NCBI GenBank assembly: GCA_964402565.1
Contig: CAYOCJ010000001.1
Span: 568,823-632,822 of the forward strand
Length of the DNA stretch: 64,000 bases
Direction: 5' to 3'
Origin: an uncultured Gammaproteobacteria bacterium
GTDB taxonomy: Bacteria; Patescibacteriota; Patescibacteriia; UBA1558; 2-01-FULL-52-15
Position numbers and translations under genes: made by a program. This document shows, piece by piece, positions 1,525 through 42,388 of this stretch. How positions within the stretch are numbered: position 1 is the stretch's first letter; every line of letters begins with the position of its first letter. The notes beneath the pieces were generated by a model. It was not told the origin of the DNA. It did no database searches and saw nothing but the letters and a program-made list of their open reading frames with translations.

Positions 1525-1530
1525 GTGAGT

Positions 1531-2208: not shown

Positions 2209-2323
2209 ATAAGCCGTCTTAATATTAATAGCCGTCCATTAAAGATTAGCACTTTCAGGATTTTAGTCAAGTGCCAAGGAATATTAAAATAATTGCTAAT
2301 ATTAGCAAAAATTTTTTTAATTT

Positions 2324-4525: not shown

Positions 4526-4529
4526 CGGG

Positions 4530-5723: not shown

Positions 5724-5729
5724 ACTCGT

Positions 5730-9830: not shown

Positions 9831-11711
9831 TTAATTAGTTTTAGAACTAAATGCATACAGGGCCGATACCTTGATCAGGCCGTCAGCATCAGTCGTATAC
9901 GCAAACGCCCGCGTCTGAAGCGTATCCGAGGGGTTGAGCTGGGTATAGGCGGCAAGCGCGTCCTTTTCAATCTGCATGAATTTCGCACGATCCGTGACGA
10001 TCAAACCAGTGTAATTCGCATTTATCCGCATGGTCACCGCAGCATCAGGCGTCGCATTCGGGCGTACTTCATAGGTGGCGATGGTCTTATCCATGAAAGA
10101 TGCCAGCAGGTAAGTCCCCGCTTTTTCCTGCTCTGAGACATAGACAGGGAAATTATCATTCCAGAGCTGCGCCGCTAAGTAGTCTGCAATTGCAGCATTC
10201 AAGGCATCTGGCGTCGGGTCTGCATGCGTTGGCGAACTATCGCTCAAGTGCTTTATGATAAGGTCTTTGGTAGCTCCATCAATAGAGATGACTTTGTCGA
10301 TCTGATATGTCTGGCGTTTGCCCGGAAGGCCGCCTTTTTGCACTGCTTCAGGCGATAAACCTACTGAAAAATTGAATGAAACATTATTAAGCACTTCTGT
10401 GGCCGTTATTGCCGGCGTTGTTGTGGCCACAGGACCAGGATTCACATCCAGAATGGGCGGCAAGTCCGGCGGAGGCGGTGCTGGTGTTGCATATTTCAGC
10501 CAAGCGAACCAACCAACGAGATTCAAGAGGATGAAAAAAACAACCGCCAGTGCAATAGTACGCTTCTTATCTCTGCTCATCGGCCTTGCCTGCCCATTCT
10601 CCTCTTGCGCTGCACTCGTTGGAATTTTCTTTATATCAGGAATCCAGTCGTTTTCTTTATGCTTCAAAAAGTTAATGGCATCGCTGCGGTCGCCAAGCGC
10701 GATGCGTGCTAGTCCCAACACATTCAAAAAAGTCGGCGCATACCATTCTTGCGTATCAATTTTAAAGAGTGGCGATGGTGCAGCGACGGTCGTCGGCAGA
10801 CCCAAATTCGATGAAAAGTAATCATCGATCCCTGCGAGAGACGCGGTACCCCCGGCAAGAAGAACTCTGTTCACGGCAGTGCCCGTTTTTCGTTCATAGA
10901 ACTTGATGAAGACCAGTAATTCGTCTTTGAGAGGCTGTACTTGGCCCTGAATGATGAGCATTTCGGCACCGTCGCCAGAGCCGTTCGCTGAACGCAAACC
11001 GCTGGCCATTTTTCTCTGTTCCGCTTCATTCTGGCTGATCTTCAACTTTTCTGCGAGCGCTGAGGTGATATTATTGCCGGCAATATTGATATTGATCGAT
11101 TCCTGCAATGCCCCTGTTCTAAAAATTGACGCTATCGTTGTCCGTGCACCGATATCAAGCAAAAGGACTGTCTCATCAACGCGTTCATCAATGGTCGCCA
11201 TCGCCAGCGCAAGGGATTCGAGCGTTACCAGCGAAACCTTCATTGATAACCCCTGAAATAACGTTACATATTCTTGAAGCAGCGGTGCATTCGTCGCAAC
11301 GAACAGATATTCTTTTGTATCACCAAGCGTCCGCAGCATACTAAAATCCGCAGCGATTTGTTTCGCGTCGAGCGGCATAGTCTGGACCGCTTGCGAGAAC
11401 AGAGCGGATGGAATTTGCTTCGCCGGCAGTTTCGCACCGATCGAAAGCGTTTCTACGTATACGCGCGACTCGGGCAACGTTATCACTACCTCATGGGCCG
11501 AGATCGGCGTTGGCTGGGCTTGCGCCAAAAGCTGCTTCACGGCTGCGCGAAGCTTATCCTGATCTATGATCTTTCCATCCTCAATGATGCCGCTTTCAAG
11601 TACTATCCTCGACTGGCTTTTGATCCGCAGGCTGCCTTTTTCTCTCAATAATTCAAGAGCCTCAATGGAAAAATCAGAAATATTTATTGCACAGGTCTTT
11701 CGTTCTAACAT
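9831..11711 (-). CDS. pilM: Type IV pilus assembly protein PilM (actin-like ATPase) fused to a PilN-like bitopic C-terminal region
   Basis: 626 aa. PilM-like DIGARTTIASIF and LLAGGTASLAGIDDYFSSNLGLPT, then a TM helix (IALAVVFFILLNLVGWFAWL) and a ~230 aa extracytoplasmic tail. Confidence 0.65.
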   Translation of the reverse strand: MLERKTCAINISDFSIEALELLREKGSLRIKSQSRIVLESGIIEDGKIIDQDKLRAAVKQLLAQAQPTPISAHEVVITLPESRVYVETLSIGAKLPAKQIPSALFSQAVQTMPLDAKQIAADFSMLRTLGDTKEYLFVATNAPLLQEYVTLFQGLSMKVSLVTLESLALAMATIDERVDETVLLLDIGARTTIASIFRTGALQESININIAGNNITSALAEKLKISQNEAEQRKMASGLRSANGSGDGAEMLIIQGQVQPLKDELLVFIKFYERKTGTAVNRVLLAGGTASLAGIDDYFSSNLGLPTTVAAPSPLFKIDTQEWYAPTFLNVLGLARIALGDRSDAINFLKHKENDWIPDIKKIPTSAAQEENGQARPMSRDKKRTIALAVVFFILLNLVGWFAWLKYATPAPPPPDLPPILDVNPGPVATTTPAITATEVLNNVSFNFSVGLSPEAVQKGGLPGKRQTYQIDKVISIDGATKDLIIKHLSDSSPTHADPTPDALNAAIADYLAAQLWNDNFPVYVSEQEKAGTYLLASFMDKTIATYEVRPNATPDAAVTMRINANYTGLIVTDRAKFMQIEKDALAAYTQLNPSDTLQTRAFAYTTDADGLIKVSALYAFSSKTN

Positions 11712-12143
11712 CTAATCAAGTATATCTTTATAATCGATAATGGTAAATGGGTTCGTCGCGATATTCACGTTCGTATTGGTCCTTCCGACCATGCTTCCGC
11801 CCAAAGCACTGGTAGTTGTAGCACTTGCATTGATCGTGCGGGTATTGCCGGAGCCGGCGATAATTGCCGTGCAATGCGTATTCGTGTCACCTGAGTTGAC
11901 ATTCAGGCTGACAGCGCCCGATACTGTATTATCCCTTCTGAGGCGCGCTAAAGCATTATTGACGCACGAGGACGTTAGATTTCCGACCTTGCTCGCTGAT
12001 AAGCGTGAATCACTTGCTATGGCCTCATCAGCATTCATGAGCGCGATAGAAAGGCCATAAATCAAAATGAACGACGTGATGATCATGACTGAGATCAGCG
12101 CTATAATACCCCGATTCGCATGAGATGCACGAGTCGTGCTCAT
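11712..12143 (-). CDS. Small N-terminally anchored protein, possibly a non-canonical minor pilin-like component (lacks the G-F-T-L-I-E motif)
   Basis: 143 aa. N-terminal hydrophobic helix NRGIIALISVMIITSFILIYGLSIAL, a Thr/Ser/Asn-rich tail, and ATGA-coupled to neighbours inside the pilus operon. Confidence 0.35.
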   Translation of the reverse strand: MSTTRASHANRGIIALISVMIITSFILIYGLSIALMNADEAIASDSRLSASKVGNLTSSCVNNALARLRRDNTVSGAVSLNVNSGDTNTHCTAIIAGSGNTRTINASATTTSALGGSMVGRTNTNVNIATNPFTIIDYKDILD

Positions 12144-13873
12144 GGGCTTTTCCTGAATGCTGAAGTACTGCTTGTCGTGTAGGTTGCTAAGTTAAAATTT
12201 GAAGGCAATGCCTGGCTGTCATAGCCCACATTAATAGTCGTTTCTATAGCCTGCCTGGAACCGACGGTCGTAGTAGCAAATACTAGCCCTCCGGACAATA
12301 CGCGCGCCCGTGACCGATCGACCAAATCAAATGTTTCAGTGTGGGAGCTTAATGGCGGAACATCGCAAGACGAGTTTCTTCCCGCACTCGGATAATTCTG
12401 ATAGCACACTAATTGAACCCCGTATTGGTATGGCACGAGGGCGCCGCTCGTTCTCAAGCGTTTCTGAGTCCCGCTTGAATCAGATCCTGAATATATATAC
12501 TCGCCGTCGAGCACCATGCCTCTGACATCATCGGTGTCAAGAAGTGTGCCTATAATCATCCCAATACCGCTATCGCTAAACGGTCCATCGGCGGCACATG
12601 GAGCTCCATCTCCGGTACACGGCGCCAGGTCAGAAAGCTGCCGTTTTTCTATAAGCAACTCATTTACGTTTCCAAAAAACTCACCTCCGGTGAACATGTA
12701 ATTGCTGTCAATGACCATCGACCACGGAAGAGCTGCGCCTATTACTGAATAGTCTGTCAAAACAGTAGAGCCATCGGTCAATGACACTTTCGCGACATAC
12801 CAATCGTAGTATGAATCATACCCTGCCGCATAAATATAGGATGAATTAACGGCGATTGCGGTACCAGCGCTTGAGAAGGTATCGTATACCTCGCCATAGA
12901 CCGATCCGAACCCGCCGACAACATCGCCGGTTGAAAGTGTCCGTTTGACTATAACTGATCCGTCATGGTTCACGCCGGGAAAACCGCCAGTGTGGTAATA
13001 ATAATCTCCGATAAGGTACATATACGTCGAGTCAATATCAATGCCCCACAAATATCGAAAAGAATTCCCCGTGAGCGAAAGGACTCCGCCGTGTACAAAA
13101 TTCGGATCATATGCACCGCTAATTTTACTTCTTTTTTCTATGCGCCAATCATTCCCGTCATCACCCGCGATATACAGATAGTCCGAGTCCGTTTTCATAC
13201 TATGGATCGTGGCGCCGCCAGTGCTCTCGACGTATCCGTCAGAGTCGAAGCCAGTATCCAGAGTTCCGGTTGCGGCATCTCTCTTTTCAATGGCGAAGTA
13301 GAGCACGCCCTGTCCGCCGATATACAAATTACCGCTGTCATACACCAAACTTCGAATGCTAACAGCACTGGTAAGTGTTCCGAGGGTGCCGAAATGCTTT
13401 TCAAGCGACAGGTCTGACTTTCTGCGCTTCGTAATCTGATTGCCATATGCCGTGTAAATATAGGTTCCATCCATGGCTATAGCTTGAGCGCCCGGCGTCT
13501 CTGAACCGGTGGTGCCCGCAGGCTTTATTGCAATTGCGTTCGTTTCATAATCCCCAGCACAGCCCGGAGGTAAAAATTTGAGTGATGATGTCGCGAAATA
13601 GAGATATAAGGTAGATGGGTCTGTATAACACTTATTACCGGAGCTGTCAGTGACAAAACCATCAGAATTCCTTACCAAAAAATTAACTAAGGACAACACA
13701 CGTGAAGCCGCGGCATGCATATCGCTGGTGATAGAAAAACGCAGCCGGGAGCCCTGTATAATAAAAGCGATATTGGAAAGCGCGACCAGAATGAAGGCCA
13801 GCACGCCAACGTAAATAATGAGCTCTACCAGCGAAAAACCCTTTTGGATCTTTTTTTTGAAAGGAAGCTTCAT
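12140..13873 (-). CDS. Type IV pilin-like protein with a class III (prepilin) signal, fused to a large beta-propeller-like repeat domain (PilY1-like tip-adhesin architecture)
   Basis: 577 aa. N-terminus KGFSLVELIIYVGVLAFILVAL is a prepilin cleavage/assembly motif. Recurrent Y-x-Y-x-x-G blades (YIYTAYGN, YLYIAGDD, YMYLIGDYY, YIYAAGYDSYYD, YMFTGGEF, YIYSGSDS). Confidence 0.6.
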   Translation of the reverse strand: MKLPFKKKIQKGFSLVELIIYVGVLAFILVALSNIAFIIQGSRLRFSITSDMHAAASRVLSLVNFLVRNSDGFVTDSSGNKCYTDPSTLYLYFATSSLKFLPPGCAGDYETNAIAIKPAGTTGSETPGAQAIAMDGTYIYTAYGNQITKRRKSDLSLEKHFGTLGTLTSAVSIRSLVYDSGNLYIGGQGVLYFAIEKRDAATGTLDTGFDSDGYVESTGGATIHSMKTDSDYLYIAGDDGNDWRIEKRSKISGAYDPNFVHGGVLSLTGNSFRYLWGIDIDSTYMYLIGDYYYHTGGFPGVNHDGSVIVKRTLSTGDVVGGFGSVYGEVYDTFSSAGTAIAVNSSYIYAAGYDSYYDWYVAKVSLTDGSTVLTDYSVIGAALPWSMVIDSNYMFTGGEFFGNVNELLIEKRQLSDLAPCTGDGAPCAADGPFSDSGIGMIIGTLLDTDDVRGMVLDGEYIYSGSDSSGTQKRLRTSGALVPYQYGVQLVCYQNYPSAGRNSSCDVPPLSSHTETFDLVDRSRARVLSGGLVFATTTVGSRQAIETTINVGYDSQALPSNFNLATYTTSSTSAFRKSP

Positions 13874-13876
13874 ACC

Positions 13877-16800
13877 TTATTCGAAATCAATCTGGACATC
13901 GTATAGCGTCGGCGTATCGAGATTCGAGGCGCAATTCGTAAGATCAGCCCGATACTGGAAGAAACGTTTCCCCTGTAACGTACTATCTCCTGAAAGATCT
14001 TGAGACACACTGCTCCCGCTTCCGGAATATGCAGTAGCAGATGCCCATGGCGTCGACGTAGAATAATCAGCAGTAGGTCCCGTATTAGTTCCGCGCACTT
14101 TCAAGGTAAGCGCACAGCCGGTCGGAATATTTTGAGACCAGGTTATCCTGAGCGCATTACGCTGGACGACGGCAGCATAGGTAGATACATCGATCGACTG
14201 GGATACCAGATACCCGGAACCTGCGTAATTCAGAACCACGGTGCCTGGCTGCGTGGTGAAGCTCCAGCTTGTGGTATCAGCTATTCCGGCATACGCGTTT
14301 GACGAGGCATCGAGAAATGCGTAGGCATCGATCTGTATATAATACTCTGTATTGCCAGCCAAAGTGACAGACGGGTCGATGGTTATCGTATTGGTACCGC
14401 TGCCAGTAACCTGGCTTAAGCCAGCGTCAATAGCCTCAACTGATGAATCATCTGATGTTTTTTTAATGTACACAAAATAACCTGCTTGAGCTGTAACAGC
14501 CTCGCTAAACGTAAGCACTAAATTCGTGGTTGCTGAAATACCAGTAGAGTTGTCTACCGGAGAGAGCGTATTCACCGTCGGAGCAGTATTGTCGACAACC
14601 GGTATCAATAGCGTCGCAGGCGTTGCCTGATCATTTGAAAAATCGTTGACCGTCAGGCGCAGACAATACGCCCCGCCATTTGCTGATGCAGCATCGGTCC
14701 CGCTTTTCCAGGCAAAATTTAAGGTATTTGCTCCGGATGCAGTCTTGATCTTCTTCGTAGAAGCCGTACCTATCTGGTAGCTATTGGAGTTATTCAGGTC
14801 GACGGTTCCATTGGTATCATAGTACGACGCCGTAATAGGACCTCCATTCAGCTGTTCCGGATCTGGCCCTGCAAGGGTAGCCTTGGTCCAAGATCCAGTA
14901 CATGAAGAGCCGCTTTGGTATTCAATTAATGCTTTTGACAAGTCGCCATTCGGATCATTCACGGTGATGTTAACGGGGATAATACCGGATGAATTAGACG
15001 GTGCCGACCCCCAGGTACCGGTAGGACGATTGTCGAAGGTGACACTGGTCTTACTAACCGTCGTAGCAGTGTTACCAGCTAAATCAGTTGCGTCGAATGC
15101 AAAAGTATAAATAGTGCCATTGACCAAGGTTGGTGCACTGGTACAACCAGAGCTCATATTAAAATTATTATGTCCTCCGGTATTCAGTGCAGCGCCTGTA
15201 AGCGTGCAGGTTTGATTGCTTGCTGCTGTACCGCCAGTGCGCGTCATGACGATCGTGCCACTTGCGATCGCTTCACTCAAGGTATAGCTCACATCTGATG
15301 ATGTGGTCACACTATCGATGGTCGAGCTGGAGTTCGGTAATACGCCCGATATAGTCGGCGATGTGGTGTCATAGGTCACACTGGTCCGTGAAACCTGTGT
15401 CGCCGTATTGCCTGCGGCATCAGTTGCATCAAAGTTAACTGTATAAATCGTGCCGTTGACTAGCGATTGCGCACTGGTACAGCCATTGGTCGTGTCGCTC
15501 AAATCAAGGTTATTATGTGCTCCGGAGTTCAAGGCAGTCCCCTTCAATGTACACGTGTGAGTAGTCCCATCAGTCGTACCACCAGTACGAGTAAAGACAA
15601 TGGTACCGCTCGTGATAGCCTCGCTTAAGGTATAACTGACATCAGATGAGCTCGTGATGCTGTTAATAGAGGTGCTCGATGCTGGCAATACTGATGAAAA
15701 TGCAGGCGCTGTAGTATCGTAGGTGACGCTTGTCGCAGATACTGTTGTTGCAGCATTTGCAGCGGCATCTGTGCCGTTAAATGCGAAGGTGTATACAGCG
15801 CCATCGACCAGCGTCTGCGCAATGCTGCAGCCATTGGTCGTATTCGTCATATCGAAGTTGTTATGCGCTCCGCTATTCAGCGCAGTACCGACCAAGGTAC
15901 AGGTATGCGGCGAAGATCCGTCTGATGTGCCCGATGTTCTGGTGACGGTGATGGTACCGCTTGCTATTGCTTCGCTTAAGGTATAGCTGACATCTGAAGA
16001 ACTTGAAATACTATTAATAGAGGTGCTTGATGCTGGCAAGGTCGAAGAAAAAACCGGAGCTGTTTTATCTGCAACAGTCGTAATCATAGGATAATGCGGA
16101 TAGCTATCGAGCGCAGTGCCTCCTGATTTTACTACTTTGAAACAATAATTTGTGCTTGCTGGCGTTCCATTATCGATCAAAGCATAGTCCCACATACCAT
16201 TGCCATTCAGTAGCATGGTATCGACGCTATCAGTGAAGTTATTCGCTTCTTCATAGGTTTGCTTATGTATCGTCTCTGATCCATGCGTCGGGTCGCTTGC
16301 ATTACTGGTAAGCGTAGCGCCATCGGCCGGAGAATTTGCAGTATTATAGGCAACGAGAGTCGAACTGGTGACATCAGTGTAGCTGGATGGTGTTCCTCCG
16401 GATGGTGACGCACAAGTGCCAGAGCCTTTATCCACGTACTGCAGTTTAAAATCCTGACCATTCTTGTACAACGGAGAGCTTGACGCGTGAACCAGTTCAC
16501 GCAGTCTGAACTGCTGGCCATTCGTGGTCAATGAGCCATTCGTATCCTGGGAAGCCAGCGCACTTCCCACGTCGGTCGAAGCAGCATTTGCAAAAAATCG
16601 AAACCCATCTTGAGCGTAGGTCTTCGCATGCCACGCTGCATACCGGTACGTCACGCCGCTCGAGTCTGTTTCAGTATTGTTGCCGACCGTAAAGCCATCG
16701 TTAGTGGTGGTCGTAATACGCGACGCGGCATTTGAAGTACCAGAAAAGTATTGTGTATTATCCGTTGCGATAGACCCGCTCCGGTGCACGCCTGAAACTG

Positions 16801-18640
16801 CACCGGTTTGCTTGATAAGCGTAAGATCAGGCTGGAATGTCAGCCCAGTGATCGAATGGCCGGCAGATCCTGTATACGACCCCACTTTGAAATTTGTACC
16901 GGTCTTAAATGCAAACCAGTAATAGTTGCTCGCTGACGTATTTACATTTGCATCGGTACCAAGCGTAAATCCAGCGCTATCCAGAGATGTGATAGCTCCT
17001 GAAGCAATGTCAGCAGTGGCAGCAAAATGCATAGCGACAGTACCGCCAGTGGACGATGTCTTCCAGATTCCCCATGTCGCTCCAAAACTTCTGGTGACAA
17101 GCAGATCCGGTTGGAAAGGCACCCGCGTGACGCTGCGCGCAAGTCCATTCCCATAATACACACCAATGGCAAAATCAGCAGCGCCGGTATTGGTCTCGGG
17201 ATTGAATGCATTTCCGAATGCCTGCCACCGATAGACTTGCGCATTCGTGTTCACCGTCGCGTTCGTACCAAGGGTAAAACCATCAGAATCAAGTGACTTG
17301 ATCTGATTATACGTTGCAGCAGAATTTAATGATAAATTTATTGTAGTCGTCGCAAGTAAATTCATCCTATACACGGTGCCGGATCCGGCGTCACTTTTGA
17401 TAATAACCAGATCTGGCCTAAACCCAACTCCGGTAATGGCTTTATTGTCGCTTCCGTTGCCTGTATACGAACCTGTGGCCATTGTAAAGGTTCCAGACCC
17501 CGATGGGGTACTTGCCCCTCCAATGGCAATGTAGTTATACGCAATTAAATTTGTATTTGAGTTCGCTCCCGCGCCTACGCTAAATTGCGCAGAGCCAAGC
17601 GACGTAATATGAGTTGTCGCATTCGCAGTATTAGTAAAAAAGCTCGTACTATCGCCGAAGCTTTCCGTTTCGTTAAAAACAGCGGCATTCGCTCCTGCAG
17701 ATTTTGTCATAGCAAACACTGGATTCAAACCTGTGGTAGTGATGTTTTGAGATGTGCCATTCCCTGCATACGTACCTGCAGCGAATGCACCGGATACCGT
17801 CTTAAATGCAACATAGTAATACGTTACTGCATTGGTATTTACTGCTGCTGCATTCGCTACGGTAAAACTGGTTGAGTTCAGCGAGTAAAAATTCAAATGT
17901 CCTGTTTCATTCGCGGTCGCTGAAAAGAAAGCTGCTGTTCCGGAAGCATGACTTGATGATGTCCACACGCCCTGGCCGGCCGTGGTTGCCGACTTGACCA
18001 TCACGAAGGCCGGCTGAAAACCCGTGCTGATGGTCTGGCTTGCAGCGCCATTGCCTGTATACGAACCAACGCAGAATGTACCGCTGCTCGAGCAATCTGA
18101 ACCATCAAAGGCTATCCACTTATACCGGGTAATGACGGTGGTTGTCAGTGCATTGACCCCGGCATCAGTACCAAGGGTGAATCCTCCATTCGAAGCCGAG
18201 TCCAGTGATGTGATTGCGCTGCCGAAATCTGCTGTCGCCGTATCGAGTACATTAGAATTCGTGCTGGATATAGACGTTGATTTCCAGACAACGCCTTTGC
18301 CGGCGGCAGTGTCGGCCTTGATCATGACCAGGTCGGGTGCTGAGGAAAAACCTAATCCTGAAATCGATTTCGTTGCATTTGAACCTATATAGTACCCTGT
18401 TTGAACTGAGAATGTTGCAGCTTTCGCATGTTCAACTCCGGGAAAGAGATAGCCCGAGTAGCCAAAAAACGTCCACAGCAAATGGATGAAGATCGCTGTC
18501 ACATACAAGACCGTATGCTGTATCCTCCGCACATGGCGCGCATGCAGCAAATCCATTTTTTCACCAAGCGCATGCTTCCACGTCTTTTTTCGCGATACTG
18601 TCTTTATCTTCATCTTTCTTTTTGTCTTCTTTTTTTGCAT
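13877..18640 (-). CDS. Giant membrane-anchored surface protein with N-terminal ~90-aa repeats (GFTLGT modules) and C-terminal SbsA/Big-like Ig domains; putative pilus-associated adhesin
   Basis: 1587 aa. N-terminal basic stretch then one TM helix. At least six GFT(L/V)G(T/N) repeat modules. Three near-identical ~114-aa Ig-like repeats (TAPVFSSTLPASSTSINSISSSSDVSYTLSEAIASGTI...), then a further SbsA_Ig-like domain. The start codon choice is uncertain; several in-frame Met. Confidence 0.6.
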   Translation of the reverse strand: MQKKKTKRKMKIKTVSRKKTWKHALGEKMDLLHARHVRRIQHTVLYVTAIFIHLLWTFFGYSGYLFPGVEHAKAATFSVQTGYYIGSNATKSISGLGFSSAPDLVMIKADTAAGKGVVWKSTSISSTNSNVLDTATADFGSAITSLDSASNGGFTLGTDAGVNALTTTVITRYKWIAFDGSDCSSSGTFCVGSYTGNGAASQTISTGFQPAFVMVKSATTAGQGVWTSSSHASGTAAFFSATANETGHLNFYSLNSTSFTVANAAAVNTNAVTYYYVAFKTVSGAFAAGTYAGNGTSQNITTTGLNPVFAMTKSAGANAAVFNETESFGDSTSFFTNTANATTHITSLGSAQFSVGAGANSNTNLIAYNYIAIGGASTPSGSGTFTMATGSYTGNGSDNKAITGVGFRPDLVIIKSDAGSGTVYRMNLLATTTINLSLNSAATYNQIKSLDSDGFTLGTNATVNTNAQVYRWQAFGNAFNPETNTGAADFAIGVYYGNGLARSVTRVPFQPDLLVTRSFGATWGIWKTSSTGGTVAMHFAATADIASGAITSLDSAGFTLGTDANVNTSASNYYWFAFKTGTNFKVGSYTGSAGHSITGLTFQPDLTLIKQTGAVSGVHRSGSIATDNTQYFSGTSNAASRITTTTNDGFTVGNNTETDSSGVTYRYAAWHAKTYAQDGFRFFANAASTDVGSALASQDTNGSLTTNGQQFRLRELVHASSSPLYKNGQDFKLQYVDKGSGTCASPSGGTPSSYTDVTSSTLVAYNTANSPADGATLTSNASDPTHGSETIHKQTYEEANNFTDSVDTMLLNGNGMWDYALIDNGTPASTNYCFKVVKSGGTALDSYPHYPMITTVADKTAPVFSSTLPASSTSINSISSSSDVSYTLSEAIASGTITVTRTSGTSDGSSPHTCTLVGTALNSGAHNNFDMTNTTNGCSIAQTLVDGAVYTFAFNGTDAAANAATTVSATSVTYDTTAPAFSSVLPASSTSINSITSSSDVSYTLSEAITSGTIVFTRTGGTTDGTTHTCTLKGTALNSGAHNNLDLSDTTNGCTSAQSLVNGTIYTVNFDATDAAGNTATQVSRTSVTYDTTSPTISGVLPNSSSTIDSVTTSSDVSYTLSEAIASGTIVMTRTGGTAASNQTCTLTGAALNTGGHNNFNMSSGCTSAPTLVNGTIYTFAFDATDLAGNTATTVSKTSVTFDNRPTGTWGSAPSNSSGIIPVNITVNDPNGDLSKALIEYQSGSSCTGSWTKATLAGPDPEQLNGGPITASYYDTNGTVDLNNSNSYQIGTASTKKIKTASGANTLNFAWKSGTDAASANGGAYCLRLTVNDFSNDQATPATLLIPVVDNTAPTVNTLSPVDNSTGISATTNLVLTFSEAVTAQAGYFVYIKKTSDDSSVEAIDAGLSQVTGSGTNTITIDPSVTLAGNTEYYIQIDAYAFLDASSNAYAGIADTTSWSFTTQPGTVVLNYAGSGYLVSQSIDVSTYAAVVQRNALRITWSQNIPTGCALTLKVRGTNTGPTADYSTSTPWASATAYSGSGSSVSQDLSGDSTLQGKRFFQYRADLTNCASNLDTPTLYDVQIDFE
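15040..16080 (-). repeat. Three tandem near-identical ~340-nt coding repeats (Ig-like domains) inside the giant surface protein gene
   Basis: Visible DNA repetition, e.g. gtgacactggtc...gccattgaccaaggt / ...gccgttgactagcg / ...gccatcgaccagcg units, encoding TAPxFSSxLPxSS...VSxTSVTYD repeats. Boundaries approximate (+/-30 nt). Confidence 0.7.
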
Positions 18641-18642
18641 AG

Positions 18643-19263
18643 CTAGCCGGTTGTCGTGGCTAATTCAAGTCTGCCCGTCGTAGACGGAACATCAACACGA
18701 TACTGCGTTTCCCAGTTTGTCGATCCTTCGGTCCATGCAGACGTGCTCGTCGCGCCGCTCCACATGGTCTGAGACATGCGCACCGCATCATCATTCGTAA
18801 GATACGCTTCGAACTTATAATCGCTCTGTCCGGCAGCGCTAATAACAACGACGACCTTTTTCGTATATTTATCATTGACGCCGCTTCCGATGGCGCCCGT
18901 AGCCAAATCTCTCTGGACTGAACTGATATAGATAGACCTGGTCAAGCCGCTTCGAACCTCAGTTCCTGTACTGATCACCCAGTCGCCGCTTGCATTCTTA
19001 TCCAGGCGGACCGATGTCGCTGAGTCATACGAATCACCTCCGTCATTCGCTTCCAATGAGCCCCAATTTCTATCAGAGATGATCTCTAAAGCTTCCATAG
19101 CATCGTCAGCGAATCGGGCTTTTTTTTGTATATCTCCAGTCCCGGTGAATGCAGAATAACTGCCTGTTGCAAGGTAGGTAATGCCGGCGCCGAGGATCAA
19201 AAATACCCCGATTGCTATAGTCATTTCTATCAGTGAAAATCCTTTAGTACAAAGCGTAGCCAT
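18643..19263 (-). CDS. Type IV pilin / pseudopilin (prepilin-type N-terminal cleavage/methylation domain)
   Basis: 206 aa. N-terminus MATLCTKGFSLIEMTIAIGVFLILGAG is the canonical G|FSLIEM pilin motif. Confidence 0.75.
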   Translation of the reverse strand: MATLCTKGFSLIEMTIAIGVFLILGAGITYLATGSYSAFTGTGDIQKKARFADDAMEALEIISDRNWGSLEANDGGDSYDSATSVRLDKNASGDWVISTGTEVRSGLTRSIYISSVQRDLATGAIGSGVNDKYTKKVVVVISAAGQSDYKFEAYLTNDDAVRMSQTMWSGATSTSAWTEGSTNWETQYRVDVPSTTGRLELATTTG

Positions 19264-19288
19264 AGAGATAGTATATCACGCGCGCATC

Positions 19289-20551
19289 TTAATAATAATC
19301 TGCATAACCGGTGCTATCCATTTGTATGGTTGTCGTCGATACACCGTTCGCGACATAGATTTTTGAAGGTACAAACTCATTCGTGGTTGTTGTCCTGGAA
19401 AAAATGGAAAGACCTCGTATCTGCTGGGGTGTGAGCGGACGGTCATATACAAATACATCATCAAGATATGCCTGGGAATTCATGCGGTTTGTATTGTCTG
19501 AATTAAGGCCTATATAGCTTTCATTCATTGACTCCCCCGAGCAGGTAACGGTAGTCGCTGCTGCCTCATCACCATCAATATACAATTTTAATTTAGAACT
19601 AGATGCATCATACGTTGCGGCAATATGGTACCAGCTAGCTACCACAAGAGGATTCGAAGCAACCGCAGTATAGTAATCATGGCCATCGTAACATACTGCG
19701 GTCGGTTTATTTGATGCATCAATATAGATGCCTCCGGACTTGTAGTAAGCATCCGTAGTGGTCTGCGATCCGCCAATAAGCGCAGACTGTATATAGGAGC
19801 CGGTGGTTCCGACCTCCATTGCATAGGTAAAGCCGGTGCTTGCCTGATGGCCAAGAATGGTATTTGGAATATCGATCTGCTCGCCTGTTCCTGAATTTGC
19901 GACCGTTGTTTGCCGCGACCCTGAACCGCCATTAAAGCCGACTGAATATGCTGGCTGAAAATACAAAGTGCCCGATGCAGTATTATTATTCCCTGAAACA
20001 TCGAACAGATCTTGAAATGCGTACCATCCGAAATCCGGATAAAATCTGGTCATTGAATATGACTCCATCGAATAGCGCGCCACTGGGTTCGGCGGCAGAC
20101 CATAGGTGTTCATCAGATACCCTGAGTAACGCTCAAAATACGGGTCTATGCCTTCAAGATCGGTCAGGTAATTATTTGCCCGAAGGGTAACGCGTGTATC
20201 GTAGCTGCTGTCACGCGAGGCAAAATCAGTACCTTTGAAAAGCACGACGCAATCGACGGCGGTTGAAGACCCGCAATCGGTAGTGCCATTGTCCACGAGA
20301 TGTATGCCCCAATTTTCATGTTCTCGATTCGAAACTGCATACTGCCTGCCGGTCTCGAGCAAATGGACAATGTCCCGTGCATCATCAACGGTCTGGTCAG
20401 CCCCGGTCGCGAAACTATTGATGAATCGCGGCACAAAGGCTCTGAGCAAGAGCATGACAACGGCAAGAACAACGATCATCTCGAGCAAGGTAAAGCCCGC
20501 ATTTCCAGAGTGATTCTTATATGTTCGCATGCGCCTCCGCAACATAACCAA
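19289..20551 (-). CDS. Type IV pilin-like protein with a C-terminal LamG/concanavalin-A-like jelly-roll domain (minor pilin or adhesin)
   Basis: 420 aa. NAGFTLLEMIVVLAVVMLLL prepilin motif. C-terminal WYHIAATYDASSSKLKLYIDGDEAA...YLDDVFVYDRPLTPQQI is typical of LamG-like domains. Confidence 0.65.
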   Translation of the reverse strand: MVMLRRRMRTYKNHSGNAGFTLLEMIVVLAVVMLLLRAFVPRFINSFATGADQTVDDARDIVHLLETGRQYAVSNREHENWGIHLVDNGTTDCGSSTAVDCVVLFKGTDFASRDSSYDTRVTLRANNYLTDLEGIDPYFERYSGYLMNTYGLPPNPVARYSMESYSMTRFYPDFGWYAFQDLFDVSGNNNTASGTLYFQPAYSVGFNGGSGSRQTTVANSGTGEQIDIPNTILGHQASTGFTYAMEVGTTGSYIQSALIGGSQTTTDAYYKSGGIYIDASNKPTAVCYDGHDYYTAVASNPLVVASWYHIAATYDASSSKLKLYIDGDEAAATTVTCSGESMNESYIGLNSDNTNRMNSQAYLDDVFVYDRPLTPQQIRGLSIFSRTTTTNEFVPSKIYVANGVSTTTIQMDSTGYADYY

Positions 20552-20562
20552 AACAAGTTTTT

Positions 20563-21771
20563 TTATTGATGGATCCCTCCGATGATATTGCCGATCGGCA
20601 GGATGATGGACAGAGCCATAAAGGCAACCAAAAAACCAATGACCAGCAGGAGCACCGGCTCCAGAATGGTCGAGAGATTCTTCGAAAAAGAGTCAAGCTC
20701 ATCTTCATAGAACTCTGCCAGGTATTCGAAGGTTTCTGATAGATTTCCCGAAAGCTCTCCGACATTGATCATTTTCGTAACTAATGAGGGGAAAAAATGA
20801 GGGTACCGATGCAAGGTAACCGAGAGTGCTGTTCCCTTACGAACTTCCACCAGCATGGCTGCCACGCGATCCTGATACAGCGAATTGCTTAATGCGCGGG
20901 TCATGATGTCGAGCGACTCGTCGATGGTCAGTCCTCCCTGAAGCATCAATGCCATGGAACGGTTGAAGTTTGCCAGATTCGAGGTTTTACTGAATTGATG
21001 GCTAATCGGCAGATGATATACCAGCCAATGAATGTAGCGTTTGGTTTTCGGCAGTTTATTCGCGACGATCACAGCCACGATAGACCCGACAGCCGCAACG
21101 GTCACCAGGTACCAATACTTTTGCGAGAATGTCGCCACGACGATGAAAATTTTGGTCACCAATGGCAGAGCGACATTCAATGATTTGAACAATTGCAAAA
21201 ATTTCGGCAGGATGAAAATCGACAGCGTGATACCAAGGCCGCCTAATGCGATGATCACGATCGCCGGGTACATCATGGCCGACTGGATCTTGGAATGCAG
21301 GTCATGGTCCTTCTTCAGCTTGACGCTGAGGTTGATCAAATTCCTTTCCAAAGAACCGCTCTGCTCACCGATCTTCACCATGTTCACGAAAAATTCATTG
21401 AATGTGTACGGGAATAGGCGCAAGCCGTCAGAAAGCTCACTCCCTTTTCTCACGAGTTCAAGCAAACGCCGCAGGATCGATTTCATTCGTCCGCGCGACT
21501 GCTCATATAACGCTTCAATGCTCTCATCCAATACCATGCCTGACTTGATCATCAGGGATAAATGCTTGACGAAGAGCATCTTTTCTTTCAGCGGAACGAT
21601 GCCGAAGCCAGACAATGGCCGCTTGTGATATTTCTTGGAAACTGATTCCAGCGACTGCACGTCATAGCCCTGCTGCATCAATGAAAAATGCGCCTGCTTC
21701 AAATTTTCAGCATCGATATCCCCTTGGAAGATCTGCTTATTTTTATCGAGTACTCGATAATGGAATTGCAT
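20563..21771 (-). CDS. pilC: Type IV pilus / T2SS inner-membrane platform protein PilC/GspF
   Basis: 402 aa. Two T2SSF-type repeats with three TM helices. 1-nt gap to pilB downstream. Confidence 0.9.
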   Translation of the reverse strand: MQFHYRVLDKNKQIFQGDIDAENLKQAHFSLMQQGYDVQSLESVSKKYHKRPLSGFGIVPLKEKMLFVKHLSLMIKSGMVLDESIEALYEQSRGRMKSILRRLLELVRKGSELSDGLRLFPYTFNEFFVNMVKIGEQSGSLERNLINLSVKLKKDHDLHSKIQSAMMYPAIVIIALGGLGITLSIFILPKFLQLFKSLNVALPLVTKIFIVVATFSQKYWYLVTVAAVGSIVAVIVANKLPKTKRYIHWLVYHLPISHQFSKTSNLANFNRSMALMLQGGLTIDESLDIMTRALSNSLYQDRVAAMLVEVRKGTALSVTLHRYPHFFPSLVTKMINVGELSGNLSETFEYLAEFYEDELDSFSKNLSTILEPVLLLVIGFLVAFMALSIILPIGNIIGGIHQ

Positions 21772-21772
21772 A

Positions 21773-23446
21773 CTATCCTCGTACTACTCTTATTATTTCT
21801 TCAATGCTGGTCTTCCCGACCAGCACTTTCTCGAGTCCATCCTCTACCATGGTAATCATACCATGTTCGCGTGCAACCTGGCGGATCTGGTCAGCATTCG
21901 CTTTCGACACGATCAGTTCGCGAATCGCATCATCCATCGGCAATACCTCGAAAATACCGATACGACCCTGATACCCGGTTTGGCTGCAGAATGAGCACCC
22001 TTTGCCCTTATACGTACGAGCCTGGCCTTCATACACGTACTTAGAAATATCGACATCGGCACCAAAGAGCTTCGCTAATTCAGTCTCAGAAACGCTTTCA
22101 CTTGCAATGCATTTCGAGCAAATTTTGCGGACGAGGCGCTGGGCGATGATAATGTCGATGGTCGACGCGATCAGGAACGGCTCGACATGCATATCATAGA
22201 GTCGCGGCAACGTGGTCGCCGCATCGTTCGTATGCAAGGTCGAAAGCACCAAATGACCGGTCATAGCAGCATTGATCGCAATGGCAGCTGTTTCCTCATC
22301 GCGAATTTCACCGACCATGATGATGTCAGGATCTTGGCGGAGCAAGGAGCGAAGACCTGCAGCGAAGGTGAGGTTTGTTTTCGGATTGACCTGGATCTGA
22401 TTCATGCCATCCAGGTAGTATTCGACCGGATCCTCAATAGTAGAAATATTGACTTCTCTGCTATTCACGATGAGCAGCAACGCATACAAAGTCGTCGTTT
22501 TACCGCTGCCGGTAGGCCCGGTGGACAGTATCATGCCATGAGGCTTTGCAATGGCATCACGCACCAGCTGCAAACCATGCTGCGAAAGGCCTAATTCCTC
22601 GAGCGAGGTCAGGCGGGAGTCGGGCGCCAATAAACGCATGACCACTTTCTCGCCTTGCGTTGTCGGCAAAATCGAAACACGAATATCGATGTCTGCTTTA
22701 TCAATGGACATCATCATTTTGCCGTCCTGTGCTGAACGGTGTTCATCGGTTCTGAGCTTGCTCAAAATCTTGATACGCGTGATGATCAGGTCGTGAATAG
22801 CCATAGGCAAAGTGAGCACATCGTGGAGAATGCCGTCAATTCTGAAACGGATCAGCACATCTTCTTTGTGCGGTTCGATATGAATATCTGAAGCTTTATT
22901 TTGGAAGCCATATGCCACGAGCGTATCTACGATCTTGATAACCGACACATCCTCTGCCCGGGCGCCCCGCGCCTTGAGCGCATTGACCTTAATGATCTCC
23001 TCAAATTGCAATTTGATGCTTTTTCGGTACTGAACCAGAGCCTGCTCGATCAAAAGCTCAGGGCAATAGTACGGTATAACGTGTTCACCGGTCTTCTTTT
23101 CCATCATTTTGATGAACTCGTAATCCTCGGGGTCAGACATTGCCAGTTTCAAGCCTTCGGCATCACGGCGGAATGCAAGTACGAAGCGTTTGCGGGCGAC
23201 CACTTCGGGTATTTCAGTAAGCGTTTCCGGAACAATAGCTTCTTTTCGCAGGTCGATAAATTTGACCTTATAATAATTGGCAAGTAATTGGCCGATCTGG
23301 TCTGCTTTAACGACATTCCGTTCTATCAAAACATCGGTCAAACGTTTCTGTTCACGGTCAACGATACTTAATGCCTCAGAAAGCACTTCAGGGCTTGCGA
23401 GGTTCACTTTTTGTATGATCTGTACTATGGCTTCTTTAGATAGCAT
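21773..23446 (-). CDS. pilB: Type IV pilus assembly ATPase PilB/GspE family
   Basis: 557 aa. Walker A LSTGPTGSGKTTTLYALL, Asp/His boxes GEIRDEETAAIAINAAMTGHLVLSTLHTND, tetracysteine CSKC...CSFC, and an N-terminal T2SSE_N-like domain. Confidence 0.92.
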   Translation of the reverse strand: MLSKEAIVQIIQKVNLASPEVLSEALSIVDREQKRLTDVLIERNVVKADQIGQLLANYYKVKFIDLRKEAIVPETLTEIPEVVARKRFVLAFRRDAEGLKLAMSDPEDYEFIKMMEKKTGEHVIPYYCPELLIEQALVQYRKSIKLQFEEIIKVNALKARGARAEDVSVIKIVDTLVAYGFQNKASDIHIEPHKEDVLIRFRIDGILHDVLTLPMAIHDLIITRIKILSKLRTDEHRSAQDGKMMMSIDKADIDIRVSILPTTQGEKVVMRLLAPDSRLTSLEELGLSQHGLQLVRDAIAKPHGMILSTGPTGSGKTTTLYALLLIVNSREVNISTIEDPVEYYLDGMNQIQVNPKTNLTFAAGLRSLLRQDPDIIMVGEIRDEETAAIAINAAMTGHLVLSTLHTNDAATTLPRLYDMHVEPFLIASTIDIIIAQRLVRKICSKCIASESVSETELAKLFGADVDISKYVYEGQARTYKGKGCSFCSQTGYQGRIGIFEVLPMDDAIRELIVSKANADQIRQVAREHGMITMVEDGLEKVLVGKTSIEEIIRVVRG

Positions 23447-23458
23447 GGCATTGTTTCA

Positions 23459-24058
23459 TTAAAATTGCTGCGCTCCGCATTGAGGACAAAATTTAACGCC
23501 TTTATCAAGCTTGGTCCCGCACTCCGGACAAAAATTATGCGCTGAACTTTGCTTTGGCCGAGAAGGTGCTGCTGCAGCAGGCTGTTCAACTGGCTGTACA
23601 ACAGGCGCCTTTTCTACTGAAGGTGACTGAGTAGCCGCAGCAACAGGTGTTTTCACAACAGCTGGAGCTTTCGGCTTAACCTTGCTCATGTGCAGGTGAT
23701 AGTCGATGCGTTCAGCGATGATATCAAGCGTCGTATTATCTTTGACCAGGTACTCCACAGCACCAAGATCAAGCGCTCGCTTCTGGTCATCGCTCTGAGC
23801 TAAATTTGAAAGAATGATGACCGGTATAGAGCTGAGCTCATCTGATCGCTGAAGATCAGTAAGTACTTCGAAGCCGCTCTTCTTCGGCATGATAAGGTCC
23901 AGGATCACACAGTCCGGCTTCAAAGTCATGATCTTCTGAAGACCGTCTTCGCCGTCGACGGCCAATTCAACGTCAAAGCCCTTATCATGCAGCTCCGCTT
24001 GGTAGACTTTGCGGAGGAAGCTGTCATCATCAATGAAAAGAACGGTGCCTTTACTCAT
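23459..24058 (-). CDS. CheY-like response regulator receiver domain with a C-terminal zinc-ribbon
   Basis: 199 aa. LFIDDDSFLRKVY...KPDCVILDLIMPKKSGFEVL receiver motifs, and C-terminal CPECGTKLDKGVKFCPQCG. ATGA overlap with the upstream CheA-like gene. Confidence 0.8.
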   Translation of the reverse strand: MSKGTVLFIDDDSFLRKVYQAELHDKGFDVELAVDGEDGLQKIMTLKPDCVILDLIMPKKSGFEVLTDLQRSDELSSIPVIILSNLAQSDDQKRALDLGAVEYLVKDNTTLDIIAERIDYHLHMSKVKPKAPAVVKTPVAAATQSPSVEKAPVVQPVEQPAAAAPSRPKQSSAHNFCPECGTKLDKGVKFCPQCGAQQF

Positions 24059-25626
24059 ACGATATGTTCAAAAAGTACTCGATGATTCACGATCGTTACC
24101 GGTATACCCTCCTCAGATACTGCTGCGCTCGAAACAAGCTTGCTTTTTTGAACCACCGGCAGACTCTGTGCCAATAACTCCTGCTCCTGAACTCCTGACG
24201 GTAAAAAGAGAGCACATCGGCGTCCTTCATGAACCACAATAGCTACTGCAACCGCATGCAATGCTGAGGCGTCTGCCCCATCGACGAATGCGCCGATAGT
24301 GCGCACCGGGACCTTTGCATTTCGATAGCGATACTCCGTCGGAACTGCGCCATCGGAAGGTAATTGTATAATTTTTTCTACCGTAAATAAAGGCAATGCA
24401 AGATAGTAGGCGCCCCATTGCCAGGTCAATGCACGGAACAGCGTGGGAGCCAATGGAACAATCAATTCAAAGGTTGTGCCCTTATTCTTTCCCCGGTTCG
24501 CGCTTCGCATTTCCATCGTGCCATGCAAGCCTTCCAGCACGCTTCGTACAAAAGGAAGGCCGACCCCGCGACCTGAAACCAACGATGCCTGTTCCCGGGA
24601 GCTGACACCTGCGCCTATTAAGAACTGCATGCGAAGCTCAGGCTTCATTTTCATCAGTTTCTGCTTCGTAGTCCGGTTATTTCGCAAAACAGATCGTTCC
24701 AGAGCGTCCCAATCAATGCCATGTCCCGTATCGCTCACCATGACATGCATGGCGCCTGCCCGCAGGTCGAATGACAGCCGAATAACTCCGGTGTCTCCTT
24801 CGCGGAATCCATGGTCAACGGCATTTTTGATAAGCTGTACGCAGGCCTCCCGCAGTGCTTCCAGGACCTGCGATTCAAAACGCATGTCATGGTCTTTGAA
24901 TTCGAAGGTGATGAATTTCTTTTGCTGCCTTGAGAGATCACGCACGAGCCGTGATAAGAATGCGAAATATTGGCGTACCGGAATAAGTTTCATGTCGATG
25001 ATCGCTTTTCTCAGATCACTGGCATGCGTGGCGAGATTATAAAGGCCGACCTTGAGCGCACCGATATCGTTCGAATGTAGAACGCGCTGCAATTGCTGCT
25101 GGGAAATCACAATATCATTGACCAATGCATACGCATTTTCCAATTCTGCAGAACTAATGTCTACATACGAACTTAACGGTGCGTATATTGAGCTGGTGGT
25201 ATCGCTCGTTGTTTGCGCCTGAGGCGCCGCCTGATCTGCCGCGCGAGTTTTTTTCCCTGATGGCCGCAAAGTGAATGCAATAGCAGGCCCGAGGTCTATT
25301 TCACTATCTGACTCGCGGATGCTATCAAGGTTGCGCCGGAACGCATCAATCGCCATAAAGCATGCGTCAAGACTGTCGCTCCCCAGCGACCGATTCCCCT
25401 GACGAACTCCGATGAACAAATCCTCTACTTGGTGCAATGCATTTGCCAGCGCCTGGTAATTCATGGTCGCCGCATCACCTTTGAGCGCATGCAATTGCTG
25501 CAGAATCGCATCGATCCCTTTCTTGTCATGAGGATTTTTTTCAAGAAGTATCAGCACATCCTCAAGATGCTTCAATTTGAGCGCTGCCTCGGACAAAAAG
25601 AGCTGCTTGTACTGGCTTACGTGCAT
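24055..25626 (-). CDS. cheA: CheA-like chemosensory histidine kinase (Hpt, dimerisation, HATPase_c, CheW-like domains)
   Basis: 523 aa. Hpt QQLHALKGDAATMNYQALANALHQVED; kinase LIKNAVDHGFREGDTG, VSDTGHGID, SGRGVGLPFVRSVLEGLHGTMEM, GKNKGTTFELIVPLAP; C-terminal CheW-like region. Confidence 0.8.
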   Translation of the reverse strand: MHVSQYKQLFLSEAALKLKHLEDVLILLEKNPHDKKGIDAILQQLHALKGDAATMNYQALANALHQVEDLFIGVRQGNRSLGSDSLDACFMAIDAFRRNLDSIRESDSEIDLGPAIAFTLRPSGKKTRAADQAAPQAQTTSDTTSSIYAPLSSYVDISSAELENAYALVNDIVISQQQLQRVLHSNDIGALKVGLYNLATHASDLRKAIIDMKLIPVRQYFAFLSRLVRDLSRQQKKFITFEFKDHDMRFESQVLEALREACVQLIKNAVDHGFREGDTGVIRLSFDLRAGAMHVMVSDTGHGIDWDALERSVLRNNRTTKQKLMKMKPELRMQFLIGAGVSSREQASLVSGRGVGLPFVRSVLEGLHGTMEMRSANRGKNKGTTFELIVPLAPTLFRALTWQWGAYYLALPLFTVEKIIQLPSDGAVPTEYRYRNAKVPVRTIGAFVDGADASALHAVAVAIVVHEGRRCALFLPSGVQEQELLAQSLPVVQKSKLVSSAAVSEEGIPVTIVNHRVLFEHIV

Positions 25627-26051
25627 ATATAGGTAGTGATAAGTTTCGGAATGTCGATGATGGTGATCTTCCTTTTTTGATGGTCGGTATATCTGAGCGT
25701 ACAGGCGAGCAATGGTTTTTTAAAATCAGCCATGCGCGGATTTGCTATCAGCTGCCCGACTTTTTCAACTCGAATCGCATAGTACGCGCCTTCATGCCTG
25801 ACGATCACTGCCTGATTCGCATTTCGCGAAACTCCCAGATTCATGATAGGCGCACAGTCGACCACGGTCATCAATTGGCCGAGCATATAGCCCAAGCCAA
25901 GTACTGACCGAGATCGATTGCCGGGGATCGTCGTGATCTGCGCAAGCGCAGTGACGCCATCGACTTGATCGACCGGCAATGCATACCAGCGGTCTTGTAT
26001 CGTAAATGGAAGTAAGGTGGTGATTTTTTTTATGGTTGCCATTTTGATCAT
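25617..26051 (-). CDS. CheW-like coupling protein
   Basis: 144 aa. Single CheW-like domain (RWYALPVDQVDGVTALAQITTIPGNRSRSVLGLGYMLGQLMTVVDCAPIM...AVIVRHEGAYYAIRVEKVGQL). Overlaps the CheA start and the MCP stop. Confidence 0.6.
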   Translation of the reverse strand: MIKMATIKKITTLLPFTIQDRWYALPVDQVDGVTALAQITTIPGNRSRSVLGLGYMLGQLMTVVDCAPIMNLGVSRNANQAVIVRHEGAYYAIRVEKVGQLIANPRMADFKKPLLACTLRYTDHQKRKITIIDIPKLITTYICT

Positions 26052-28581: not shown

Positions 28582-28584
28582 ACT

Positions 28585-29601: not shown

Positions 29602-29604
29602 GCA

Positions 29605-42299: not shown

Positions 42300-42388
42300 T
42301 GCCCAGGAAACAAACACCAGCGCAGATTGGCAATCGCCCTTTAATTCATTTATAGTTAGTGTGTGTTTAAAAAAAATTTAACGCACTG

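Follow-up and report, generated by a model that had tools for sequence, protein, structure and literature searches.

We characterized a giant surface-type protein gene that lies inside a type IV pilus operon, within a 64-kb stretch of contig CAYOCJ010000001.1 (hereafter the window, meaning the whole stretch analyzed). The gene, here called the giant, is an open reading frame (ORF) at 13877..18640 on the minus strand that encodes 1587 amino acids (aa) from its first ATG; public gene calls (NCBI and Logan) begin it at Met10 and give 1578 aa. It belongs to a same-strand gene run in which, from the response-regulator gene to PilM, neighbors overlap or are separated by spacers of 0-25 nucleotides (nt). 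The genes of this run are as follows.

26048-27937, minus strand: methyl-accepting chemotaxis protein (MCP)
24055-25626, minus strand: CheA-like kinase (Hpt and HATPase)
23459-24058, minus strand: response regulator with a Zn-ribbon
21773-23446, minus strand: PilB (T2SSE)
20563-21771, minus strand: PilC (T2SSF)
19289-20551, minus strand: 420-aa modular pilin with a Laminin_G_3 (ConA-like lectin) module
18643-19263, minus strand: pilin206, a 206-aa canonical prepilin, KG|FSLIE
13877-18640, minus strand: the giant, 1587 aa
12140-13873, minus strand: 577-aa pilin (pilin577), KG|FSLVE, starting 3 nt past the giant stop
11712-12143, minus strand: 143-aa pilin-like protein without Glu5
9831-11711, minus strand: PilM-fusion protein, 626 aa

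The TAG stop of pilin206 is followed after 2 nt by the ATG of the giant, whose own TAA stop is followed after 3 nt by the ATG of the 577-aa pilin. A preliminary description of this DNA had placed the giant between pilins at 18643-19263 and 12140-13873, and this was borne out, since both carry a G|FSL(I/V)E signal and the gaps are 2 nt and 3 nt; the class III prepilin motif is present in all three pilins flanking the giant. Pilin206 and the giant are separate ORFs in different frames. A programmed frameshift fusing the two was ruled out: the related loci L001 and L084 have a gap of 1 nt against 2 nt in the window, so that the relative frames differ. Scans for promoters and terminators gave counts at or below the shuffled expectation, and neither Rfam nor tRNA scans of the window gave a match. 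Besides, a Logan contig from SRR12313479 matched window positions 11877-20613 with 0 mismatches over 8737 nt, with the caveat that this contig may come from the same reads as the window. Because that contig is identical and the internal repeats of the giant are too diverged, a collapse or other artefact of the assembly, which had been named as a way in which the ORF could be spurious, is unlikely. A chimeric junction between pilin206 and the giant is likewise improbable, as it is common to four genomes.

Directly upstream of pilB, on the same strand, lie the MCP, the CheA-like kinase, the Zn-ribbon response regulator and a likely CheW. This chemosensory set (23459-27937) is kept in relatives (L001, 721-5202, and the contig of protein P0149) and looks like a pilus-coupled, Chp-like sensory system in a genome of candidate phyla radiation (CPR) type. 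At the other end of the operon, PilM is one 626-aa fusion here (9831-11711) and is represented by 524-aa and 87-aa gene calls in L001 (16891-18790).

The giant itself is composed of the following parts, given from the N terminus to the C terminus.

18416..18640, minus strand: leader, aa 1-75, basic at 1-42, hydrophobic at 43-66, then PGVEHAKA|ATF
16628..18415, minus strand: six DUF7483 modules, aa 76-671, all-beta
16070..16603, minus strand: middle domain, aa 680-857, no Pfam name
15035..16069, minus strand: three tandem Ig-like units, aa 858-1202, of 112-117 aa each (R1, aa 858-974, 15719-16069; R2, aa 975-1090, 15371-15718; R3, aa 1091-1202, 15035-15370)
14594..15028, minus strand: 145-aa domain, aa 1205-1349, no family
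14252..14593, minus strand: Big_5 bacterial Ig-like domain, aa 1350-1463
13880..14245, minus strand: C-terminal beta-sandwich domain, aa 1466-1587, with two conserved Cys

Judged from its sequence, the giant is a chimera that joins a DUF7483 surface protein to an end domain detached from the neighboring pilin. Its last 122 aa are rare: when 1.84 billion representatives were searched exhaustively, only 35 proteins matched them at E ≤ 1e-3, and the domain stood at the extreme C terminus in all 35 but a few of the weakest matches. Eleven of the 35 carriers have an N-terminal part of about 200 aa homologous to the whole of pilin206 (nine at 35-41% identity, E 3e-22 to 3e-45; two at 23-24%, E 1e-9 and 2e-6). 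The simplest, P0133 (317 aa), comprises only a pilin206-like stem and the C-terminal domain, joined by a linker of about 15 aa. P0149 (1004 aa) lies in an operon with the order MCP, CheW, CheA, response regulator, PilB, PilC, pilin, P0149, pilin, a 294-aa gene, and PilM, and the fused pilin P0124 is followed by a homologue of the 577-aa pilin and occupies the same operon slot as pilin206 and the giant. P0149 and P0124 fill the same slot; therefore, by homology, what is one modular pilin elsewhere is two genes here, namely pilin206 as the stem and a giant whose last domain is the terminal one of the pilin. The giant by itself is not a modular type IV pilin, as stem and cargo are on separate ORFs, the fused state being that of P0124, P0133, and P0149. 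Homologues of the 577-aa pilin come after both the fused and the split forms.

The split state was found in four genomes, and the second gene is different in each, as listed below.

This window: array, middle domain, three Ig units, 145-aa domain, Big_5, and end domain
P0002 of L001: array, middle domain, five Ig units, and end domain
L074: array and end domain only, about 765 aa
P0121 of L084: the same leader, Ig, 145-aa domain, Big_5, and end domain, with a different head without DUF7483

The gap from the pilin206 stop to the ATG of the second gene is 1-2 nt in three genomes, the leader is 43-50% identical in relatives, and the domains are 61-84% conserved with P0002. Furthermore, the giants of a second lineage (L025, L027, L037, and L045) end in the same domain (profile, E 1.5e-5 to 2.5e-3). 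The order in three of these loci is PilB, PilC, pilin, pilin206-family pilin, a Bla-like gene, giant, and pilin; the gene calls of L027 contain no pilin206-family gene. Among 66 DUF7483 giants with complete 3' ends, the end domain occurs in 7 of the 9 that are pilus linked and in none of the 57 others (Fisher p = 5e-8, uncorrected for phylogeny). By sequence comparison, the pilus-operon arrangement of a giant recurs in at least two divergent Patescibacteria lineages, the giant is encoded for co-expression with the pilus, and its terminal domain marks the pilus linkage. Two scans of metagenome contigs, one with pilin577 and one with the C-terminal alignment, gave no match. The proposal of a pilus-associated or co-exported adhesin in the preliminary description is upheld in its general form, that of an adhesin of the pilus operon, by the tight packing, the pilin-type C-terminal domain and the recurrence in these lineages.

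The AlphaFold2 (AF2) model of the C-terminal domain is a compact beta-sandwich of about 120 aa with a pLDDT of 91.6. Its top Foldseek matches were a mannanase carbohydrate-binding module (CBM), CBM61, CBM32, and the sugar-binding domains of PNGase and Fbs1, followed by an ephrin-receptor ligand-binding domain and a phage baseplate protein; the probability of these matches is about 1, but their E values are weak (5e-3 or worse) and their TM scores are 0.4-0.54. Thus, the predicted fold is a lead towards glycan binding and not a demonstration of it.

The front half of the giant belongs to a different family. An in-house module hidden Markov model (HMM) placed the six modules at aa 78-179, 187-280, 285-373, 386-476, 489-579, and 582-671 (i-E, the independent E value, 2e-32 to 1e-40), with GFT(L/V)G motifs at aa 153, 258, about 352, 454, 557, and 649. 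The preliminary description of six GFT(L/V)G modules of about 90 aa was right as to number and motif, although the period is about 100 aa. Pairwise identity among the modules is 28-47%. As the closest pairs are the first and fourth modules (47%) and the second and fifth (41%), the array is probably a duplicated three-module unit. The modules had been regarded as lacking an assignable family, which no longer holds: Pfam DUF7483 (PF24299) matched the giant at 86.2 bits (E 3e-24) in five stretches, far above its gathering cut-off of 27, which makes the giant a member, and PHROG 24898, a "tail fiber protein", matched the array at E 5.5e-18. A further PHROG match was to 19943, a "virion structural protein" (E 1.7e-13). 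In line with these annotations, cyanophage and pelagiphage virion proteins were found by tblastn to contain the array at 26-37% identity, and predicted phage structures in BFVD matched it at E 1e-41 to 1e-30 in three-module alignments with a root-mean-square deviation of about 3 Å. No other phage genes were seen among the operon neighbors examined. The AF2 model of residues 1-700, built from a 49-sequence alignment, has a pLDDT of 87 and a pTM of 0.82, on account of which the six modules are predicted to pack as one rigid body and not as beads on a string. Foldseek comparison of the N-terminal half with the PDB gave no convincing match (TM ≤ 0.17), only hints of multi-jelly-roll or beta-sandwich arrays; a PDB sequence search with the giant returned nothing at E ≤ 1, and a literature search found no paper that mentions DUF7483.

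Between the array and the end domain lie parts that are shared unevenly among relatives. Only part of the DUF7483 family has the middle domain (in the fetched loci, 21 target ORFs counting duplicates), which is 75% identical in P0002 and 60% in P0069. The 145-aa domain is absent from the orthologue P0002 and present in P0121 at 67% identity, and the Big_5 domain is 66% identical in P0121. Of the SbsA/Big-like Ig domains described previously, the Big part stands, as Big_5 (PF13205) scored 60.9 bits against a gathering cut-off of 23.6, which makes the domain a member; SbsA_Ig gave no Pfam match at E ≤ 1. Big_3_3 (PF13750) reached 26.2 bits, just under its gathering cut-off of 27, and the tandem units are accordingly Ig-like without being formal members.

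Whole-protein self-BLASTP gave the trivial match only, and the internal repeats were found by chunked BLAST. There are indeed three Ig units at 15035-16069, where the preliminary description had reported three units nearly identical in DNA at 15040-16080, but in DNA the pairs are 68%, 61%, and 64% identical and share exact runs of at most 14 nt (blastn across the units, 66.7% over 705 nt). Near-identity of the units is thus rejected, and Tandem Repeats Finder detected no array in the giant gene. Contrary to the view that identical tandem units serve as recombination substrates, these units would be poor substrates today, with exact identity of at most 14 nt in the window. In no pair does their amino acid identity (62-74%) fall below their DNA identity, a pattern that suggests ancient duplications held by purifying selection while the silent sites diverged heavily.

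The stalk nevertheless differs in length between lineages, and to that extent, though not within this window, the suggestion of length variation survives. The orthologue P0002 is 68% identical to the giant and of nearly the same length (1579 versus 1587 aa), but it has five Ig units instead of three, and these five stand where the window has three units and two other Ig-sized domains. Its units r2 and r3 share 93% DNA identity with an exact run of 290 nt, and r1 and r4 share 89% with an exact run of 245 nt. These pairs indicate recent duplication or gene conversion, as read from the sequence, with misassembly of the metagenome-assembled genome (MAG) also possible. The units of P0002 (L001, 10001-14740) lie at aa 858-1455, and their order, A-B-B'-A'-C, is odd for a simple tandem duplication. 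Among other relatives, L074 lacks the stalk entirely and P0121 carries another head.

The sole hydrophobic segment of the giant is N-terminal, at aa 43-66, and AF2 predicts a helix at aa 28-58. By composition, the leader is of Sec type, either a signal or a signal-anchor. The first module is preceded by A-x-A|ATF across 49 family members, including some with classical signal peptides of 25-35 aa, the full family-wide motif at the leader end being A-x-A|ATF(S/Q)(M/V)QTGYY. Because this site is conserved also in the short-leader members with classical signal peptides, cleavage by signal peptidase I at AKA|ATF is plausible and membrane anchoring is uncertain. Thus, from the earlier picture of a single-transmembrane, membrane-anchored protein, we retain the single hydrophobic segment at aa 43-66 and leave the anchoring in doubt.

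Three other export or anchoring types were considered and rejected. The giant has no class III signal (G|F/M-x-x-x-E) and no N_methyl match in Pfam, and it was ruled out as a pilin because that signal is absent. It was likewise rejected as a sortase substrate, since it lacks an LPXTG signal and ends in ...TLYDVQIDFE. An RTX adhesin of the type I secretion system was set aside, as the leader is N-terminal and of Sec type and no RTX-type repeat appeared among the Pfam matches, although no motif scan aimed at such repeats was made. We also observed that many of the leaders of P0011, P0049, P0121, P0123, P0126, and the window giant (aa 40-75) share a pattern in which a basic stretch precedes a hydrophobic segment whose end is W-x-F-x-G-(W/Y)-P, followed by a Pro-rich spacer and A-x-A, and that other members carry a conserved segment of about 50 aa, "DRNVVDxLYxAxKDPNVIDK", between the transmembrane segment and A-x-A. 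The leader pattern shared among these CPR proteins may be a dedicated sorting or processing signal.

Homologues of the giant number 356 at E ≤ 1e-10, and those that are named all come from Patescibacteria, among them Colwellbacteria, Parcubacteria, Dojkabacteria, and Paceibacterota. The family combines a constant N-terminal array with variable C termini that contain FN3, LamG, Big_5, or Calx-beta. We fetched 75 genomic loci in a scan with one genome per species. A Beta-lactamase2/Peptidase_S11-like (Bla-like) gene lies directly upstream in 22 of 71 loci and overlaps the giant start in the loci read in detail, and clustering of neighbors in the fetched loci revealed WxLIP_PGBD and LysM, cohesin, dockerin, and small signal-peptide proteins around family members. 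Since most family loci have no pilus genes within 10 kb, the pilus linkage of DUF7483 giants is the exception and not the rule. In loci such as L002, L006, L007, L009, and L034, the conserved DUF7483 neighborhood constitutes an uncharacterized cell-surface gene cluster of Patescibacteria. Several of the fetched contigs (L008, L013-L015, L040, L043, L045, L074, and others) bear typical Patescibacteria genes, yet they are, like the closest relatives of the window, deposited as "uncultured Gammaproteobacteria" or "Pseudomonadales"; to judge from these genes, such labels look unreliable.

Taken together, we consider it about as probable as a coin toss (roughly 0.5) that the giant is a Sec-exported, extracellular, modular attachment protein, a chimera with a cell-attached topology that is made with the type IV pilus. 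Its front, namely the leader, the six-module DUF7483 body and the middle domain, would derive from a widespread Patescibacteria surface-protein family, and its last domain would be the terminal beta-sandwich of a modular type IV pilin whose stem survives as the upstream pilin206, with the five Ig-sized domains in between acting as a spacer. The N-terminal end would stay at the cell envelope, either through an uncleaved hydrophobic segment or through the DUF7483 body after cleavage at AKA|ATF, and the stalk would project the CBM-like C-terminal domain outward to bind a glycan on a partner cell or substrate. The pilus might make and retract the first contact, which the giant might then consolidate. 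We infer Sec export, cleavage, topology, extracellular location, glycan binding, and adhesion. The cell-attached topology fits the constant N terminus and variable C terminus seen across the family, as well as the distal place of the end domain in long fused pilins.

Several points weigh against this interpretation. Binding, export, and localization of the giant are predictions; the structural matches of the end domain are weak, as given above, and a beta-sandwich of this type might just as well serve contacts between proteins. Should the leader be cleaved, the giant would be left with no recognizable anchoring motif, LPXTG included. In the split-pilin lineage it is the head that varies, with leader and end domain constant, a pattern that fits the C terminus as the attachment end. 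In addition, the Bla-like, WxLIP/LysM, and cohesin partners of the family are absent from the 64-kb window, and the Fisher test, which takes no account of phylogeny, draws on two or three independent lineages.

The variation of the head leads to the alternative that we take most seriously, though we think it doubtful: a PilY1-like, pilus-borne adhesin, in which, after Sec export and cleavage, the end domain binds back to the globular domain of pilin206 or to a minor-pilin tip complex, so that the giant rides the pilus and the Ig stalk and the phage-tail-fiber-like DUF7483 body form a distal, exchangeable binding head. Rosetta-stone logic speaks for it, as a pilin206-like part and the end domain are contiguous in P0133 across the short linker, and, where a single pilin fills this operon slot, stem and end domain form its two ends. 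Moreover, leader, end domain, and pilin206 adjacency are constant in the split lineage while head and stalk vary, the stop-to-ATG gap stays at 1-2 nt in three genomes, the end domain is found, among giants, only in pilus-linked ones, and cleavage at A-x-A would release the giant from the membrane. An analogy is offered by Saccharibacteria TM7x, in which no PilD signal peptide is predicted for the large adhesin candidates PilX1 and PilX2; the authors suggest that these may prime pilus polymerization in a PilY1-like manner (PMC11623550). However, in long fused pilins such as P0149, the end domain is distal, 700-800 aa from the stem, and need not touch it; its fold resembles glycan-binding modules, the giant contains no PilY1 or PilC domain, and a 24-residue hydrophobic segment is long for a cleaved signal. 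The stricter version, a modular pilin split into a pilin206 stem and a Sec-exported 160-kDa cargo that re-docks through its C-terminal domain as a two-piece, plug-in pilus adhesin, is a possibility that we hold still more tentatively.

It is unlikely, in our estimate, that the giant is an envelope or S-layer-like structural protein, with the rigid DUF7483 array as a surface building block of CPR cells and the operon position reflecting co-assembly of envelope and pilus. The wide distribution of DUF7483 in Patescibacteria, its usual envelope-protein neighbors (Bla-like upstream in 22/71, WxLIP_PGBD and LysM, cohesin, dockerin) and the predicted rigidity of the array (pTM 0.82) agree with such a role, whereas mosaic, highly variable C termini and an Ig-repeat stalk are typical of adhesins and not of lattice proteins, the module is common to phage tail-fiber proteins, and the usual envelope partners are all missing from the window. 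An adhesin that varies in length through recombination of near-identical tandem DNA repeats is a very improbable reading of this gene: its units are 61-68% identical with at most 14 nt exact, Tandem Repeats Finder found no array, and the SRR12313479 contig has the same three units, even though the L001 orthologue has five units to the window's three, with two pairs at 89-93% DNA identity and exact runs of 245-290 nt, and stalk copy number does change on evolutionary time scales. Finally, we hardly credit the idea of a non-functional relic, an accidental chimera left by the insertion of a surface-protein gene into a pilin gene. Its architecture is chimeric, and pilin206 looks truncated beside its fused homologues, but its 4.7-kb ORF remains intact, conservation with P0002 is 61-84% across the domains, leaders of relatives still match at 43-50% identity, and intact counterparts occur in four genomes and in the second lineage.

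Patescibacteria spend their lives attached to other microbes, and the attachment organelle with the best support in them is the type IV pilus. The locus ties together a specific pilin, an array common to phage receptor-binding proteins, and an uncharacterized DUF7483 family of hundreds of members, for which it would be the first contextual functional lead. It leads us to predict that the 122-aa end domain is the pilus-linked element, that pilin206 is its partner or ancestor, and that head and stalk are the variable parts. If the two-piece adhesin were true, an ultrasmall CPR bacterium would show an exchangeable phage-tail-fiber-like head on a retractile filament to catch its host, an arrangement conserved in at least two Patescibacteria lineages.

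Several features of the window lie apart from the pilus operon. A gene at 30843-32183 encodes an OLD-family/GajA-like ATPase-TOPRIM nuclease (PADLOC Old, E 5.6e-38), and the three genes downstream of it (28120-30549) gave no family match, no GajB-like partner being recognized among them. A second large surface-type protein of 1202 aa, with DUF11, DUF7507, and SdrD_B-like domains, is encoded at 34285-37893 and weakly matches (E 3e-5) a dockerin-bearing family that neighbors DUF7483 giants elsewhere. The G+C content is 35-39% at positions 1-6000, 41% at 42001-44000, and about 48% elsewhere. The genes of the left end (aminotransferase and histidine kinase) flank the operon in L001 too, and thus this low-G+C end may not be foreign DNA.

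Among known systems, the closest kin of the giant are the other large DUF7483 proteins of Patescibacteria, annotated as "hypothetical" or "beta strand repeat-containing protein", which have the A-x-A|ATF leader and a variable C terminus in common with it; their six-module array is 37-50% identical, and the middle domain is often present too. Most of them, however, adjoin Beta-lactamase2/Peptidase_S11-like, WxLIP/LysM, cohesin, and dockerin genes and not pilus operons, and are without the giant's pilin-type end domain. Type IV pilins with grafted lectin or other modules are known, for example, PilB and PilC of Streptococcus sanguinis. PilX1 and PilX2 of Saccharibacteria TM7x (PMC11623550) are further examples. 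The modular pilins P0124, P0133, and P0149 have the operon position and terminal domain of the giant, with a presumed adhesion role on or beside the pilus, whereas the giant has no prepilin signal or pilin stem, carrying its own Sec-type leader and leaving the stem to pilin206. With phage tail-fiber and virion proteins (of cyanophages, pelagiphages, and uncultured Caudovirales) it shares the multi-module beta array, but it is cellular, possesses a secretion leader and resides in a pilus operon. In the Southlakia transposon sequencing (Tn-seq) paper, adhesins are named only generically.

The remaining comparisons concern how the giant might act. PilY1/PilC proteins are tip-associated, non-pilin adhesins of type IVa pili, and the giant is likewise a large non-pilin with a Sec-type leader encoded among minor pilin genes; unlike them, it has no PilY1/PilC beta-propeller (Pfam and NCBIfam) or vWA domain, and its C-terminal model is a beta-sandwich of about 120 aa. 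Fibrillar adhesins of monoderm bacteria consist of an anchor, an Ig-like stalk, and an adhesive tip. The giant is without their LPXTG/sortase signal, and its stalk repeats are diverged in this genome, but it resembles them in its repeated Ig-like stalk, its distinct terminal domain and a stalk length that varies between relatives. By analogy, the giant may work like a fibrillar adhesin or like PilY1.

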